Below, one piece after another: positions 16,449-20,809 of a stretch of DNA of 32,000 bases (the first letter of the stretch is position 1; each line of letters opens with the position of its first letter). A program made the position numbers and the translations under genes. A model generated the notes under the pieces. The model searched no databases, had not been told where the DNA came from, and saw only the letters and a list, made by a program, of their open reading frames with translations. Origin of the DNA: Haloquadratum walsbyi C23 (GTDB lineage Archaea > Halobacteriota > Halobacteria > Halobacteriales > Haloferacaceae); contig NC_017459.1 in NCBI RefSeq assembly GCF_000237865.1, positions 990,001 through 1,022,000 of the forward strand, written 5' to 3'.

Positions 16449-17772
16449 TGTGTTGATACGTTCCTCGGCTCTGCACGTTTAAGTAGGGGCGTGATGTAGG
16501 CAGCATTGAAACCTGATGCTGCCGATTACGGATTTCCTCTCGTGCACCGACGTGCTGGATGAATTCGACTCGCTATCATATCATCAAACGACTCACGCCA
16601 AAACGTACGTGACAGGTCTTGCTGCGGGCCGCAGCAAGACTGTAACCGGAATTGCACGAGAGGTCCTTCCTGCCGGAAGTGACCGAGCACTCAACAAGTT
16701 CATCACCGAATACGATTGGGATGAGGATCAGCTCAACCACGAGCGGTTAGAGGAACTGCAAAAACACGGAGAGACACGCTGGTCACAAAACGGCTATATC
16801 GTTATTGACGATTCAGTCATCCAGCGAACCGGGAAGTCCCTTCCCGGTGCTGGAGAGTTCTACGATCACTCTGAGGGTGAGCCTGTTTGGGGACAGAACC
16901 TCGTCTACGCGTTCTATACCGATGATAAAACGTCCTATCCACTTGCTTTTCGCCAGTACGAGAAGGCCGACGACGAGGACGAGGAAGACGAACAGGAGAC
17001 AAAATACGACCTCGCACGAGAGATAATCACGGAATTAGAAGAAGAGGTAGGTGTGCCTGCGGGCACCTACCTCTTCGATGCATGGTTTGCTCATGACTCC
17101 GGTCTGATCGAACACGTCGAATCACACGGCAAGGACTGGATTGGACCACTACGGGGCAACCGACAGGTGACCTACGCGAACAAAGAGAGACGCGTCGATG
17201 CGCTCGAAGAGTGCATCGACAAGGAAGAGCGAGAAGTTGACGGTGAAACGTACAAAATTTGGACTAAGACAGTCCCTGTCTCGAAATTAGGTGAAGTTCG
17301 GCTGGTAATCACAGAGAAGGTTACCGATGAGGACAAAGAGAATCCAGTAAAGTATCTTGCGACGAGCAAGATTGACGCGCCTTCGGCACACATTATTCGG
17401 AGCTATTCGTACAGATGGCGAGTAGAGACATTCTTCGAGGACTCGAAAGAGGATCTTGGCTTAGGAGACTGCGAGGTTCGTGATTCTGACGGTGCCAGTC
17501 GTCACTGGCACCTTCAGATGCTGGCCTACAGCCTTCTTCGGCTTGGTCCGGAATCGAGCGCCTCGGAGCGACTTGTCTCGAAAGCCTCGTCGCTCCGATC
17601 ACAACTCGAACACGGTCTCAAGGAGACGATCTACAACATGTTTTCCTGGGTGCGCGATCAACCAGACCGCGATCTCGATGGACTGATGGAAGATATTGAC
17701 CACCTCTTTCTCCATTCTGAGGGCGGTTTATAAACGTGCAGAGTCGAGTACGTTCGTTATCGTCTCAACACA
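16449..17772 (+). mobile_element. insertion sequence with a single DDE transposase (IS4/IS701-superfamily-like haloarchaeal ISH)
   Basis: Imperfect terminal inverted repeats: 16458-16481 'ACGTTCCTCGGCTCTGCACGTTTA' versus the reverse complement of 17731-17753 'ACGTACTCGACTCTGCACGTTTA'. An outer 'TGTGTTGA' (16449-16456) pairs with 'TCAACACA' (17765-17772). The element is GC-richer than its flanks. I found no clean target-site duplication. Confidence 0.7.
16516..17733 (+). CDS. DDE transposase (IS4/IS701-like)
   Basis: Candidate catalytic residues lie in 'IVIDDSVIQR', 'YLFDAWFAHD' and 'YSYRWRVETFFEDSKEDLGL' (Y-x2-R-x3-E-x6-K signature). Confidence 0.85.
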   Translation: MLPITDFLSCTDVLDEFDSLSYHQTTHAKTYVTGLAAGRSKTVTGIAREVLPAGSDRALNKFITEYDWDEDQLNHERLEELQKHGETRWSQNGYIVIDDSVIQRTGKSLPGAGEFYDHSEGEPVWGQNLVYAFYTDDKTSYPLAFRQYEKADDEDEEDEQETKYDLAREIITELEEEVGVPAGTYLFDAWFAHDSGLIEHVESHGKDWIGPLRGNRQVTYANKERRVDALEECIDKEEREVDGETYKIWTKTVPVSKLGEVRLVITEKVTDEDKENPVKYLATSKIDAPSAHIIRSYSYRWRVETFFEDSKEDLGLGDCEVRDSDGASRHWHLQMLAYSLLRLGPESSASERLVSKASSLRSQLEHGLKETIYNMFSWVRDQPDRDLDGLMEDIDHLFLHSEGGL

Positions 17773-18089: not shown

Positions 18090-18323
18090 AATGTATTAAT
18101 ACATACCGTGGCTACTTATATAAATTTTTCGTGTACATAATGCATGCCCACTGTGTTGCCACTATCGATTATTCTCATAACTTATGAGTGAATAGCAACT
18201 CAAACGACTGAGAAGGAGATCATAAAAAGTGAAACAGTATCGAGTTTATCGATAATCATGATAACAATTAAGTAATAACAATATACTGAGCAATATCAGA
18301 TTGATACTTATTGTATTACCAGT

Positions 18324-18372
18324 AAACGACCACGGGTCGGGTGACCCGTGGAACTCTCGCTGTTTCCTTTAG
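18324..18372. repeat. unsplit copy of a 49-nt hairpin plus promoter-like module
   Basis: 'aaacgaccacgggtcgggtgacccgtg' is directly abutted to 'gaactctcgctgtttcctttag'. The hairpin has a 7-bp stem (18331-18337 with 18344-18350). The halves match 20055-20081 at 25/27 and 20431-20452 at 19/22. Confidence 0.8.
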
Positions 18373-18384
18373 ACCGAAAGCTGA

Positions 18385-19182
18385 ATGACGGCAGACTGTA
18401 TTATATATTACATGCGTGTCGCCGAGCAGACATGGCCTGAATTGGACTCATATATTAGTGAGGAATCACTCGCGGTTGTTCCGCTGGGTTCGACAGAACA
18501 GCACGGTCCACATCTCCCACTGTCGACAGACCATCTGATTGCAGAGGCATTTGCACGCGAGGCCACCGATCGGACAGGCTATCTCTGTACTCCACCGATC
18601 AATATTGGAGTCAGTCCGCATCATAGACAATTTCATGGAACAATGTGGGTTGATGCACCAGTCTTCCGTGATTACGTTGAGTCTCTCACACGGAATTTAG
18701 CGTACCATGGCATTGACCGGGTCATCTATGTGAATGCCCACGGTGGAAATGTTGAACATCTCCGCGAAGTTGGGCGTCGTCTCCGTGATGATGAGACGCT
18801 ATATGCGATTGAATGGATGTGGAATGAGAGCATCCCAGAACTTGTTGACACATTATTCGAACAAAATGGTCCACACGGTGGTCCCAAAGAAACAGCGATG
18901 ATCCAGTATCTCCAGCCTGAGTTAGTCAGTACTGACCGTCTTGCGGATGCGAGAGATGAGGGTCTTATAGAGTTCACAGATGATAATACACGAAAGTTTG
19001 GTTCACGAACATTCTATGACGCAATTGATAACACCAATAACGGTGTCTTAGGGGATCAAACCGATGCAACACCTGAAAAAGGTGAAAAAATGTTTGAGTC
19101 CGCAACAGAGCAGCTTGTGAAGCTCTGTCGATGGCTTGATCGCCAGACGATAGCTGATCTAATGCCTAAAGATCACGTATAA
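18385..19182 (+). CDS. creatininase-family amidohydrolase
   Basis: 'PLGSTEQHGPHLPLSTDHLIAEA' and 'VNAHGGN' are creatininase/ArfB-family metal-binding signatures. ATG at 18412 is an alternative start. Confidence 0.85.
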   Translation: MTADCIIYYMRVAEQTWPELDSYISEESLAVVPLGSTEQHGPHLPLSTDHLIAEAFAREATDRTGYLCTPPINIGVSPHHRQFHGTMWVDAPVFRDYVESLTRNLAYHGIDRVIYVNAHGGNVEHLREVGRRLRDDETLYAIEWMWNESIPELVDTLFEQNGPHGGPKETAMIQYLQPELVSTDRLADARDEGLIEFTDDNTRKFGSRTFYDAIDNTNNGVLGDQTDATPEKGEKMFESATEQLVKLCRWLDRQTIADLMPKDHV

Positions 19183-19248
19183 AATATTAACTAAGATGGT
19201 AAGATGGAATAAAATGATGCAGTCACTATGCTAACTGAATCACATCGG

Positions 19249-19273
19249 GGTCAACCTCCGAGGCAGTTAACCG
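19249..19273. terminator. hairpin in the convergent intergenic region (candidate bidirectional terminator)
   Basis: GGTCAAC (19249-19255) pairs with GTTAACC (19267-19273), 7 bp with one mismatch. It lies between the stops of the creatininase-family and DsbA-like genes. Confidence 0.3.
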
Positions 19274-19319
19274 AATGACATTGCTGATGGCAGACTGACT
19301 GGTTGTTATGAGTACTGGC

Positions 19320-20003
19320 TCAGTAAAATTCAGCTTCGATTGCAGATTTAACACTCGACCAATCGGGTCTTGAAACAGGAATTCCATTAACGAATATAGT
19401 TGGTGTGCTGTCAACCCCACGATCGATACCTTGTTGTCGAGTATCTTCAATAACAGGCCGGTATGGCTCCTGTTTTGCAGAAGCGGCGACAAAACAATTG
19501 TCAACCTCAATCGGGGACGCAATATCATGAACAATTTGATACCCATTGGTGTTAAGTTCAGACTGCTGTTCATACACGCCCGTTATGAAATCAAAAAATG
19601 CTTTATCATCTGCCTTATCATGAACCGCACGCGATGCAGATGCGGCGCGCCAAGACCACTCTGACACCGGGATAGGAAAGTCAAAATACTGATATTGGAC
19701 ATCACCTTGTTCAACATAGTTTGAAACGATCTTGGGTGCGACCTCTAAGCTGAATGTTTGACAATGAGGACATGCAAAATCTTCAAATACAGCAACAGTT
19801 ACTGGGGCATCATCCGAACCCCGAGTCGGCGTTGGAAGCGATGAAACACGATCAATTGCACCAACGTCACACTCGAGTGGTCCAGTAACGTCATTACTCG
19901 TGCCGCCAGCATTGGTATTTCCGCCAAGACACCCTGTCATTGCCCCACCGCCGACAGCACCAATCATAGCGATGTACTTACGCCGAGTTGACTGCATACT
20001 CAT
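19320..20003 (-). CDS. DsbA-family thioredoxin-fold oxidoreductase, Tat-signal lipoprotein
   Basis: 'STRRKYIAMIGAVGGGAMTGCLGG' combines a twin-Arg motif with a lipobox. The active site is 'FACPHCQTF'. Confidence 0.85.
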   Translation of the reverse strand: MSMQSTRRKYIAMIGAVGGGAMTGCLGGNTNAGGTSNDVTGPLECDVGAIDRVSSLPTPTRGSDDAPVTVAVFEDFACPHCQTFSLEVAPKIVSNYVEQGDVQYQYFDFPIPVSEWSWRAASASRAVHDKADDKAFFDFITGVYEQQSELNTNGYQIVHDIASPIEVDNCFVAASAKQEPYRPVIEDTRQQGIDRGVDSTPTIFVNGIPVSRPDWSSVKSAIEAEFY

Positions 20004-20054
20004 TCATTCCTTCCCGGGTCATTTAGCGATTATTAAACTTGGATGACATCGCAT

Positions 20055-20081
20055 AAACTACCACGGGTTGGGTGACCCGTG
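20055..20081. repeat. left half of the split module (hairpin; terminator-like on the minus strand)
   Basis: 'aaactaccacgggttgggtgacccgtg'. The stem is 20062-20068 with 20075-20081. On the minus strand it is followed by 'tagttta'. Confidence 0.8.
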
Positions 20082-20414
20082 AAGTACCTCGGGGTCAAGC
20101 CCCGGAGGCTTCCCTGTTGAGACCGCACTACATCAGCAAGGGAATTTAATTCCTCCCGACCTCTTCCATGAGGAATCGGCTGGAAGTAACACCCGAACAC
20201 ACCGCAGCGCCCGTGGGAGTCGGTCACTCCACCATGACCCGTTGAAACCTCCGTCGCACCGCCAGCGGCGGACGTTGAGAGGGACCACATTTCTAGACTA
20301 CCACAGCCAGCAGTAGATGAAGACCGTTAATCCGTCTTTGAGATTTTCTTGACTATACCTATCTATGCCGGCTTCACCCTCGGGTCATATCAGTATCAAA
20401 GCCCCAAGGCACTC
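20082..20414 (-). ncRNA. GC-rich structured RNA; best guess RNase P RNA, identity unconfirmed (7S/SRP RNA or other not excluded)
   Basis: G+C is 54 of 80 nt in 20201-20280, against AT-rich flanks. A 13-bp terminal helix GAGUGCCUUGGGG/CCCCGAGGUACUU has three G.U pairs that are valid only on the minus strand. Internal hairpins are AAGACGGAUUAACGGUCUU, CUAC..GUAG, CCGCC-GCU-GGCGG and GGUGGAG..CUCCCAC. 'GAGGGUGAAGCCGGCAUAG' resembles the CR-I/P4 motif GAGGAAAGUCCGGGC but is not identical. The only ORF here (85 aa, minus strand) has non-protein-like composition. Confidence 0.5.
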
Positions 20415-20430
20415 GGCTTATTTATTTATA

Positions 20431-20452
20431 GAACTCTCGCTGTGTTCTTTAT
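20431..20452. repeat. right half of the split module (promoter-proximal on the minus strand)
   Basis: 'gaactctcgctgtgttctttat' matches 18351-18372 at 19/22. Confidence 0.8.
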
Positions 20453-20455
20453 ATC
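20447..20455 (-). promoter_or_regulatory. TATA-like box upstream of the GC-rich RNA
   Basis: The minus strand reads 'gatataaag', about 27-35 nt upstream of the first base of the terminal helix (20414). A second AT block, 'tataaataaataa', lies at 20418-20430. Confidence 0.3.
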
Positions 20456-20590
20456 ACCGGTAAATTCTCTTTATAAAAATTCATTCATCATAAACTAGCA
20501 GTCAATTGGCGCTCGTTTAATGTAATATGAATCATATAAGTGGATGATAGAACCAGTCGATTTTTCACCGGCGCATGTTCTCAATATAAT

Positions 20591-20809
20591 ATGGAATTTG
20601 ACGAAGACGACAGCGTAGTGTTGCATGATAAGCACAGCGAATTCGATGGTAAGACCGGAACAGTTACACAGGTCGTCGAAACGATGTTTGGAGATGCAAC
20701 ATATACTGTCAGTTTTGAGGATGGTCAGGAAGTTGGTATTGCTGCAGACCAACTTGACCCGGTTGAAACTGAAACAAATACAGACGAAAACAACACTGCG
20801 TCTGAGTAA
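20591..20809 (+). CDS. small acidic protein, function unknown
   Basis: 72 aa from the ATG at 20591: 'MEFDEDDSVVLHDKHSEFDGKTGTVTQVVETMFGDATYTVSFEDGQEV...'. The GTG-extended N-terminus in the ORF track looks non-native. Confidence 0.55.
   Translation: MEFDEDDSVVLHDKHSEFDGKTGTVTQVVETMFGDATYTVSFEDGQEVGIAADQLDPVETETNTDENNTASE

Follow-up and report, generated by a model that had tools for sequence, protein, structure and literature searches.

Palindrome-associated transposable elements (PATEs) are derived from IS200/IS605 transposons. The 52-bp terminal-only PATEs, the HqIRS46-type PATEs and the SMR-A elements, with which the sequences of the present locus are compared, have all been described by Dyall-Smith et al. 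(2011; PMC3119063), and SMR-A elements were reported to target the palindromes of PATEs. Moreover, PATEs often encode omega RNAs, which must act in trans (Meers et al., 2023). RNAs of PATEs or HqIRS elements are not mentioned in the transcriptome paper on H. walsbyi (PMC5496347).

The window, i.e., the whole 32-kb stretch of DNA that was analysed, contains a short repeat that is contiguous at one position (site A) and split at another (site B). Comparison of both copies with the described elements leads us to propose, with a probability of roughly 0.85, that both sites are 52-bp terminal-only PATEs and that site B represents one PATE within another. The elements belong to a class already known in Haloquadratum and catalogued in 2011. 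The intergenic pattern of an RNA gene accompanied by an empty shell would be explained by nested IS200/IS605-derived miniature transposons, and the import of this explanation is mostly for annotation.

The split repeat at sites A and B

The initial annotation of the window had described a 49-nt module that is contiguous at site A and split by exactly 349 nt at site B, and its figures were reproduced by direct reading of the sequence. Positions 18324-18350 agree with 20055-20081 at 25 of 27 positions and 18351-18372 with 20431-20452 at 19 of 22, the two halves at site B being separated exactly by the 349 nt of 20082-20430. Once these 349 nt are removed, local alignment yields one ungapped 49-nt match between 18323-18371 and its counterpart at site B (20054-20081 plus 20431-20451), while the flanks share no similarity. 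Each half, with up to three mismatches allowed, has only two copies within the 32-kb window and does not occur in 100 dinucleotide-preserving shuffles, and a repeat search of the window returned the same site A/site B pairs. The hairpin has an 8-bp stem at site A, one base pair longer than the 7-bp stem of site B, and the sole difference within the hairpin, C18338 against T20069, lies in the loop, as had been stated before. When degenerate end bases are counted, the repeat unit extends to 52 bp (18322-18373).

We built a profile of this mini-PATE from 31 metagenomic copies. Site A gave a full-length match (E 1e-19), and site B matched in two separate parts, with profile positions 24-51 falling at 20081-20054 and positions 3-23 at 20451-20431, which places the split exactly at the leader/hairpin boundary. 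All parts of the unit are read on the minus strand. At site A (18322-18373), the target motif TCTAA (18369-18373) is followed by an 18-nt left-end leader AGGAAACAGCGAGAGTTC (18351-18368), the palindrome CCACGGGT-loop-ACCCGTGG (18330-18351) and the right-end tail TCGTTTAC (18322-18329), with no core between them, an architecture and length that correspond to Table S9 of PMC3119063. At site B, the 5' part of the outer mini-PATE (20431-20453) holds the degenerate target motif TATAA (20449-20453) and the leader AGAACACAGCGAGAGTTC (20431-20448), and its 3' part (20053-20081) holds the palindrome (20061-20081) and the right-end tail TAGTTTAT (20053-20060), the counterpart of TCGTTTAC. At both sites, the 52-bp unit would be a non-autonomous element in which the target motif and left-end leader are joined to only one subterminal hairpin and a right-end tail.

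We identify the repeated module as the 52 bp left of an IS200/IS605 transposon that has lost its genes, a terminal-only PATE. It resembles the core-deleted PATEs of HqIRS46 and ISHwa23 in its length of 52 bp, in the same set of parts, in its multi-copy occurrence and in its apparent mobility as a unit. It differs from the two examples printed in PMC3119063 in having a leader (CAGCGAGAGTTC) and a hairpin (CCACGGGT...ACCCGTGG) that are both of an HqIRS44/ISNph6-8-like subfamily, and the tail TCGTTTAC.

Copies and relatives of the 52-bp unit

Hypersaline metagenomes were scanned for the hairpin and gave at least 120 stretches. Among the matches listed, the contiguous leader-hairpin-tail unit was found in at least 35 distinct flank contexts, in line with the multi-copy occurrence in unrelated flanks that characterizes terminal-only PATEs, while longer elements had the hairpin as their right end in at least 51 contexts and as their left end in at least four. 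The split state was represented among the matches listed only by L073, which covers the locus of site B itself. The repeat is therefore abundant and generic, as the initial annotation had envisaged for two halves scattered independently over the genome, but it moves as one contiguous unit and not as separate halves.

The leader and hairpin of the 52-bp unit are shared with full-length elements. An element of L048 that encodes a Y1 transposase, TnpA (PF01797, E 5e-39), has the initial 44 nt of the site A unit as its left end, and in L153 a near-identical left end, with the motif TCTAT and with GAGAGTAC replacing GAGAGTTC, is followed by TnpB (PF07282). L080 is a PATE of about 430 bp whose 18-nt leader is identical to the AGAACACAGCGAGAGTTC of site B, the target motif being TCTAA as against TATAA at site B. 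The entire mini-PATE family probably goes back, by core deletion, to parents of the kind of L080 and L048, which carry the same hairpin at both ends.

These relatives bear directly on the claim that the unsplit copy is a promoter fused to a terminator, the shell of an RNA gene. According to this reading, an archaeal promoter abuts a terminator hairpin in the 49-mer, which could be reused as a regulatory module; at site B it would frame an RNA gene, and at site A its product would be a transcript that is tiny or empty. Indeed, the minus strand of site B has a TATAAAG upstream of the body and the hairpin with TAGTTTAT downstream, and a PATE with fused left and right ends is transcribed in Halobacterium salinarum (PMC4615843), which makes a small transcript possible. 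However, what was taken for a TATA box is the TCTAA target motif in site A as well as in most of the at least 35 contiguous copies listed, and at site B the complete left end of the inner element separates the supposed promoter from the RNA. Moreover, elements that encode TnpA or TnpB have leader and hairpin together as their left end, and the copies stand in unrelated flanks, as those of a mobile element do. A regulatory module is extremely improbable on this evidence; the right half corresponds to the left-end leader of an IS200/IS605 element after its target motif, and the left half to the subterminal palindrome with its tail.

The same copies speak to the direction of the change. Scarless excision of IS200/IS605 elements (PMC10055086) would leave precisely the contiguous sequence of site A, which might accordingly have held an inner-type PATE that was lost by TnpA excision or by deletion, the split state being ancestral. 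Against this stand at least 35 independent contiguous copies versus one split locus among the metagenome matches listed, as well as L001 and L009, which are contiguous too apart from an unrelated SMR-A-like insert, and site A itself bears no sign of a former occupant. We consider a precise loss at site A very unlikely and retain the insertion of one PATE into another at site B.

The inner element at site B

The separating sequence at site B (20082-20430, minus strand) had been described as a GC-rich RNA candidate plus an AT block. Its ends and its homologues identify it as a second gene-less PATE, of the HqIRS46 type and of the same superfamily, which lies inside the outer PATE. With the target motif TCTAT and the terminal CAC included, as is the convention of the family, it covers 20079-20432. 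The 5' near-terminal palindrome (20377-20410), GCCTTGGGGCTT(TGATACTGATAT)GACCCGAGGG with the enlarged loop in brackets, starts 20 nt after TCTAT, at the same spacing as in HqIRS46; the 3' palindrome and tail CCTCCGGGGCTTGACCCCGAGGTACTTCAC occupy 20079-20108, and the two palindromes are mutually similar, both being of the CCTYGGGG...CCCCGAGG type. The ends match those given for HqIRS46 in Table S9, namely TCTAY, 20 nt and GAGTGCCTYGGGGCTT...CCCGAGGGTGAA at the 5' side and GAAGCCTC(C)GGGGCTTGACCCCGAGGTACTTCAC at the 3' side, and are related through the HqIRS46 entry of that table to ISNph7, ISHwa17 and ISNph12.

With 349 nt, the inner element is too short for a transposase and has no transposase ORF. 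A tblastn search of the body with five TnpB proteins returned nothing below E 0.6, and tnpA and tnpB are absent from the 32-kb window, with no TnpB match anywhere in it. The inner ends, AAATAAATAAGCC... and ...GAGGTACTTCAC, do not form terminal inverted repeats, and there is no target duplication, since removal of the 349 nt restores the paralogous 49-mer with 0 duplicated bases. A classical MITE with inverted repeats and target duplication was considered for the body and rejected, as were a bulge-helix-bulge intron, a group I or II intron and a CRISPR-related RNA.

The inner element shares with the HqIRS46-type PATEs of Haloquadratum walsbyi the lack of terminal inverted repeats, target duplication and coding capacity, the 5' arrangement of TCTAY, 20 nt and palindrome, the 3' end, and the fact of being hit by other mobile elements. 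It is shorter, at 349 bp, than the listed members of HqIRS46 (376-493 bp), and it differs from the printed ends of HqIRS46, by which alone the two were compared, in a 5' palindrome loop enlarged by 12 nt and in TCTAT instead of TCTAC.

Matches to the 3' 25-mer of the inner element came from 36 genome stretches belonging to many haloarchaeal genera, and in at least 10 of the 36 the upstream 220-290 nt are 69-81% identical to the body in the window. These relatives extend from TCTACAG to TACTTCAC over 373-497 bp and lack tnpB; complete gene-less copies occur in about eight haloarchaeal genera, in differing flanks. No record labelled Haloquadratum was among the matches of this 25-mer scan, although HqIRS46 contains the 25-mer. 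Among the related contigs examined, none carried an orthologous empty site B, i.e., the outer PATE without the inner one: of the look-ups by exact protein of the neighbouring genes, one returned nothing and one a short contig, and all others led to sequences with the 349-nt insert. The insertion is therefore deduced from the paralogous copies. The suggestion of an RNA cassette within a repeated intergenic sequence was essentially right, the cassette being a gene-less and presumably mobile PATE and the repeated sequence a multi-copy 52-bp PATE.

The junction between inner and outer element is ambiguous by 3 nt. Boundaries at 20082-20430 leave a perfect outer element (GAGTTC/CAC), and the family-conserved ends (TCTAT...TTCAC) imply insertion 3' of TCTAT into a pre-insertion sequence GAGTTCTAT/GGG.

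Dyall-Smith et al. describe a route to 52-bp terminal-only PATEs in HqIRS46 and ISHwa23, the loss of the core by repeat-mediated deletion. Applied here, site B would be a single full-length parent PATE and site A its core-deleted derivative, and the probable origin of the mini-PATE family from two-hairpin parents (L080, L048) agrees with such a route. Nevertheless, no direct repeat flanks the 349 nt, and the CACGGGT hairpin is present only once at site B. The 349 nt also possess their own left and right ends, which belong to another subfamily with a CCTCGGGG-type palindrome and TCTAY at 20-nt spacing, and the true full-length relatives of the outer element carry different cores. For this pair of sites, descent by core deletion is hence highly improbable.

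Under the nested arrangement, the 349-bp HqIRS46-type PATE would have entered the site B copy at the leader/hairpin junction without target duplication. It has retained its left end, with the TCTAT motif, the 20-nt leader and the palindrome, together with a 3' region of about 290 nt that overlaps the tnpB end and the right end of autonomous relatives. We infer that a Y1 TnpA acting in trans could mobilise both elements as single-stranded circles in a "peel and paste" manner, each being inserted 3' of a TCTAN motif. The inner RNA, if transcribed, might serve a TnpB provided in trans as its omega RNA, with the adjacent flank as guide, and cleavage of the vacated site guided by this RNA would lead to restoration of the element.

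The structured RNA of the inner element

The 3' part of the inner element, about 290 nt on the minus strand (20079-20368), is an omega-RNA-like structured region (nhmmer E 2e-76) that stops exactly at the 3' end of the element at 20079. In a cross-genus alignment, 81 base pairs were predicted with 95.1% of the cells paired, and 27 of the 81 pairs showed compensatory changes. Shuffled controls gave 13.1 +/- 2.4 such pairs changed on both sides, with 0 of 500 reaching the observed number, and slid controls gave 4-8. Canonical pairing reached 95.1% for the minus strand versus 83.2% for the opposite one, and 118 G-U cells favour the minus strand. The earlier view of the GC-rich body as a structured minus-strand RNA is supported by this covariation. 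It is the cross-genus alignment only that settles the strand. Early population variants had conflicted on it, one G-U/A-C case in L009 favouring the plus strand, and folding of the single sequence was uninformative on either strand (z-scores -1.7 and -2.0).

A search of the whole window against Rfam 15 gave 0 matches at the gathering threshold, and in 19900-20600, at E-values up to 10, only two chance-level matches appeared. SRP RNA, RNase P and other curated RNA families were rejected on these results, and tRNA or tmRNA because ARAGORN found none.

Positions 82-303 of the RNA profile match loci in which an ORF of about 445 aa (PF07282) ends 39 nt before the end of the element. The right ends linked to tnpB that are matched by the body profile (L069, L114, L058, L135 and L149) do so over 220-240 nt, up to the element end. 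The 5' part of about 80 nt, which contains two covarying helices, matches gene-less copies only and not the tnpB-linked ones. By sequence comparison, the 3' 290 nt or so are homologous to the 3' end of tnpB plus the right end, where the omega RNA is encoded.

Strong covariation and conservation across genera, together with the presence of the RNA at this locus in every related contig spanning it, might also be expected of a fixed cellular non-coding RNA gene, such as an unrecognised housekeeping RNA, that happens to lie beside repeats. Yet the homologues, delimited by TCTAC and TACTTCAC, have unrelated genomic surroundings and share homology with the 3' region of tnpB together with the right end, and Rfam offers no match to SRP RNA, RNase P or another family. 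We assign hardly any probability to a fixed gene, as opposed to an RNA carried by a PATE.

With no matching Rfam family, the assignment as omega RNA draws solely on positional homology and covariation, and a function of the inner RNA as an omega RNA of TnpB seems reasonably probable. It resembles omega RNA/reRNA and the sotRNAs that accompany IS1341-type tnpB genes in haloarchaea (Gomes-Filho et al., 2015; Meers et al., 2023) in its length of about 220-290 nt, its location on the top strand, its homology to the tnpB 3' end and the right-end hairpin at its boundary. It differs from them by the lack of a tnpB in cis, by the 5' 80 nt or so that are confined to gene-less copies, and by having no Rfam family. 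If the RNA is an omega RNA, the TnpB model for IS200/IS605 elements (PMC10055086) would place the putative guide in the approximately 20 nt directly 3' of the inner right end (20058-20078, minus strand), which are the hairpin of the outer PATE.

One might go further and regard the RNA of HqIRS46-type PATEs as a distinct class of trans-acting omega RNA, conserved in at least eight haloarchaeal genera and with a PATE-specific 5' domain (helices 1-2), whose guide at site B is the hairpin of a competing IS605-type element; nesting at the leader/hairpin junction and RNA-guided targeting would then perhaps reflect competition between elements and not chance. We regard this extension as unlikely.

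The gene-less HqIRS46-type element thus carries a widely conserved structured RNA that is undetected by Rfam models, and a covariance model made from the present alignment would prevent such loci from being flagged repeatedly as novel RNAs. As candidate natural omega RNAs uncoupled from tnpB, HqIRS46-type elements may also bear on the action of TnpB in trans.

Further insertions at the two sites

Other mobile sequences were found at both sites. L001 and L009, which represent other strains, contain a 108-nt repeat inside the hairpin loop of site A, between CGG and GTG. This insert has imperfect terminal inverted repeats, with the ends TGGTGCTCC... and ...GGAGTACTA, and no target duplication. 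Compared by description, it agrees with SMR-A (HqIRS42/43/55), which is about 110 bp long, has imperfect inverted repeats, makes no duplication and lies within a PATE palindrome. The insert sequences of L001 and L009 could not be assigned to a named HqIRS family from the supplements of PMC3119063. In the DNA examined, the 108-nt insert had one copy only, at site A. At site B, the inner PATE is interrupted in L005-L008 by the 3' end of an element of the HqIRS56/ISHwa21 type.

A repeated 52-bp element and its split copy

The G+C content of the window (47%) and the acidic proteins encoded in it fit the expectation for Haloquadratum, and its genes are present in saltern metagenomic contigs at 96-99% identity. 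The initial annotation had described a 49-nt repeat that is intact at one site (site A) and split by 349 nt at another (site B). This was confirmed, since 25 of 27 positions are identical between 18324-18350 and 20055-20081 and 19 of 22 between 18351-18372 and 20431-20452, the halves of site B lie exactly 349 nt apart, and site B without these 349 nt forms a single ungapped 49-nt alignment with site A, with unrelated flanks. It was also correct that the only difference between the two hairpins falls in the loop. Each half occurs at two places only within the window and was not found in shuffled sequence.

Palindrome-associated transposable elements (PATEs) of H. walsbyi are non-coding IS200/IS605 derivatives with near-terminal palindromes, without inverted terminal repeats and without target duplication; the 52-bp 'terminal-only' PATEs are the product of core deletion (Dyall-Smith et al., 2011, PMC3119063). 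Site A reads on the minus strand as a 52-bp unit (18322-18373), TCTAA-AGGAAACAGCGAGAGTTC-CACGGGTCACCCGACCCGTGG-TCGTTTAC, and its layout is that of the PATE ends in Table S9 of the same study, where a TCTAA/TCTAC target motif is followed by a leader with GAGTTC at its end, then by a palindrome and finally by a TACTTCAC-like tail. The hairpin, used as query against metagenome contigs, matched at least 120 stretches. Among the matches listed, leader, hairpin and tail are contiguous in at least 35 distinct flank contexts, hairpin and tail form the right end of longer elements in at least 51 contexts, and leader and hairpin followed by GTGAA form a left end in at least four. The split state was seen among these matches in L073 only, and the L073 locus is site B itself. 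It is therefore unlikely that site A arose by the precise loss of a former occupant, and the proposed remnant of a deleted second copy is disfavoured.

In the stretch L048, an element that codes for a Y1 transposase (PF01797, E 5e-39) has as its left end the initial 44 nt of the site A unit, and TnpB (PF07282) is encoded downstream of a near-identical left end in L153, with a TCTAT motif and GAGAGTAC in place of GAGAGTTC. A PATE of ~430 bp (L080) has an 18-nt leader identical to that of site B, the target motif being TCTAA in L080 and TATAA in site B. The supposed promoter-terminator shell thus consists of the left and right ends of TnpA/TnpB-encoding elements, and a regulatory shell is an unlikely reading of the 49-mer.

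The 349-nt body and its relation to HqIRS46

On the minus strand, the GC-rich body (20082-20430) begins with (GAGT)TCTAT-AAATAAATAAGCCGAGTGCC-TTGGGGCTT[12-nt loop]GACCCGAGGGTGAAGCCGGC and ends with GGGAAGCCTCCGGGGCTTGACCCCGAGGTACTTCAC. The published ends of HqIRS46 are TCTAC-AGATTAACAGGCAGAGTGCC-TCGGGGCTTGACCCCGAGGGTGAATGCCGTC (5') and CGGTGAAGCCTCGGGGCTTGACCCCGAGGTACTTCAC (3'; Table S9, PMC3119063), and the 20-nt 5' spacing is common to both. The 3' 25-mer of the body was found in 36 genome stretches of Halorubrum, Natronomonas, Natronoarchaeum, Halalkalirubrum, Halapricum, Natronococcus, Halovenus and other genera, and in at least ten of them the 220-290 nt upstream are 69-81% identical to the body. 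HqIRS46-type relatives extend from TCTACAG... to ...TACTTCAC over 373-497 bp and were found to lack tnpB. One copy from Natronomonas, L042, has a 5' end that departs from that printed for HqIRS46 at a single base of the palindrome loop (CTTGCCCCC versus CTTGACCCC). Judged from its matching ends, the 20-nt spacing, the relatives across genera and the near-identity of the Natronomonas copy to HqIRS46, the body belongs, in diverged form, to the HqIRS46-type PATE group. HqIRS46 is present in 16-22 copies per H. walsbyi genome, and its published 3' end includes the 25-mer GGGGCTTGACCCCGAGGTACTTCAC; no Haloquadratum-labelled record carried this 25-mer in the genome collection, where the genome may be masked or absent.

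The best-supported history is that of nested PATEs. Both sites would first have held a 52-bp terminal-only PATE. An HqIRS46-type PATE would then have entered the site B unit (20053-20453) between leader and hairpin, through the single-strand 'peel and paste' reaction of TnpA, and would have produced no target duplication. A profile of mini-PATE copies aligns with the whole of site A (E 1e-19) and with site B in two pieces (profile positions 24-51 and 3-23), which places the interruption exactly at the leader/hairpin junction. That site B is a single parent PATE and site A its core-deleted derivative is unlikely, as the 349 nt are not flanked by a direct repeat and complete ends of its own are present in the body. 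Of the interpretations offered initially, only that of an RNA cassette inserted into a repeated element held, in the form of an HqIRS46-type PATE inside a mini-PATE. The junction can be placed in two ways, 3 nt apart: the boundaries first annotated leave a perfect outer element (GAGTTC/CAC), and the conserved ends of the family imply insertion after a TCTAT motif, with the terminal CAC of the inner element completing the outer stem. A search of related contigs for an orthologous empty site B found none. All components belong to classes already described for H. walsbyi and are in this sense already known.

A 27-nt AT-rich indel (TTATAAGTTATATAGCGTCATGACTGG, plus strand) lies at ~20352, between the 5' palindrome of the inner PATE and the first RNA helix; L001-L004 have it, the window and L009 do not. 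In other genera, the spacer upstream of this helix has a TTTAWG-like box ~30 nt away, and the indel may touch an internal promoter. In L003 (1-277), unrelated sequence adjoins the 3' end of the inner PATE at the expected place of the outer hairpin, which may represent another mobile element or an assembly chimera.

A structured RNA in the body

Eleven copies of the body were aligned, nine of them from other genera and the remaining two being that of the window and one Haloquadratum variant. Their consensus structure comprises 81 pairs; 27 of these show compensatory double changes, and 95.1% of cells are paired, with 118 G-U cells. Column shuffles gave 13.1 +/- 2.4 covarying pairs (0/500 reached the observed value) and slid controls 4-8; canonical pairing reaches 95.1% on the minus strand of the window versus 83.2% on the opposite strand. 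An nhmmer profile of this alignment matches the window at 20368-20079, and its positions 82-303 also match loci with a ~445-aa ORF carrying a Cas12f1-like TNB domain (PF07282), whose stop lies 39 nt before the element end. By this match, the conserved GC-rich body corresponds to the region encoding the TnpB guide RNA of IS200/IS605 elements, which is called omega RNA or reRNA and, in haloarchaea, sotRNA (Gomes-Filho et al.; Meers et al.). According to Meers et al. (PMC10055086), PATEs 'often encode omega RNAs', for which TnpB has to be supplied in trans, and expression of a PATE with fused left and right ends was shown in Halobacterium salinarum (Gomes-Filho et al., PMC4615843). No tnpB was found within the window; the RNA appears omega-RNA-like, with a predicted omega role. 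A fixed cellular RNA gene is an unlikely explanation of the body, since the genomic surroundings of its homologues are unrelated and their sequences match tnpB 3' regions.

The RNA profile also recovered gene-less copies in L105 and L130, and the right-end hairpin of L130 is of the CACGGGTCACCC...type, which places the inner and outer elements in one superfamily. The one useful side result is a model, supported by covariation, of an omega-RNA-like RNA carried by a PATE and missed by Rfam. Columns 24-85 of the alignment (window ~20295-20350, minus strand) hold two covarying helices at the RNA 5' end, which occur in gene-less PATE copies only; tnpB-linked relatives match the profile from position 82 on.

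Other mobile elements around the locus

Site A and site B are both covered by two related contigs, L001 and L009. In each, 108 additional nucleotides stand in the hairpin loop of site A, with CGG on one side and GTG on the other (L009 3277-3384, L001 3256-3363; window 18340/18341). This insert, which the window lacks, is bounded by imperfect terminal inverted repeats (TGGTGCTCC... / ...GGAGTACTA), and no target duplication accompanies it. By size and target it fits the SMR-A repeats, elements of ~110 bp whose insertion sites are PATE palindromes (PMC3119063). A different 108-nt miniature element, also missing from the window, is found at the equivalent of 19237 (L009 4283-4390, L001 4262-4369, L073 283-390, L170 1343-1450) and in L053 (497-603). 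Its terminal inverted repeats are of the sequence CAGTGATTAGT, and 3 bp of the target are duplicated (TGA; TCA in L053). The window has an insertion sequence at 16464-17748 (18-nt terminal inverted repeat, 94% complementary) with a DDE transposase gene of 405 aa (16516-17733; PF13546, PF01609); L001 and L009 lack this gene, and no transposase gene was called there in the interval from the OCD fragment to the DUF8015 gene. Several related assemblies end within the 349-nt body. In L005-L008, a sequence ending GGGATTCCTCCGCG...GGAGGAGGATGTCAA (L005 1-57, L006-L008 1-18) interrupts the body beside its 5' palindrome, at the position corresponding to 20368/20369, and the contigs terminate there; comparison with Table S9 identified this sequence as the 3' terminus of an HqIRS56/ISHwa21-type element (...GGGATTCCTCCGCGTTCACGCGGAGGAGGATGTCAA). 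The 108-nt inserts, the missing DDE gene, the assembly breaks and the interrupted body mark the region as a hotspot of small mobile elements.

A degenerate HqIRS46-like palindrome with tail (TGCCTCGGAGGTTGACCCCGATGTGATTCA; 19236-19265, minus strand), located a short distance downstream of the creatininase gene, is probably a decayed terminal-only PATE; in other strains, the second 108-nt element is inserted at its end.
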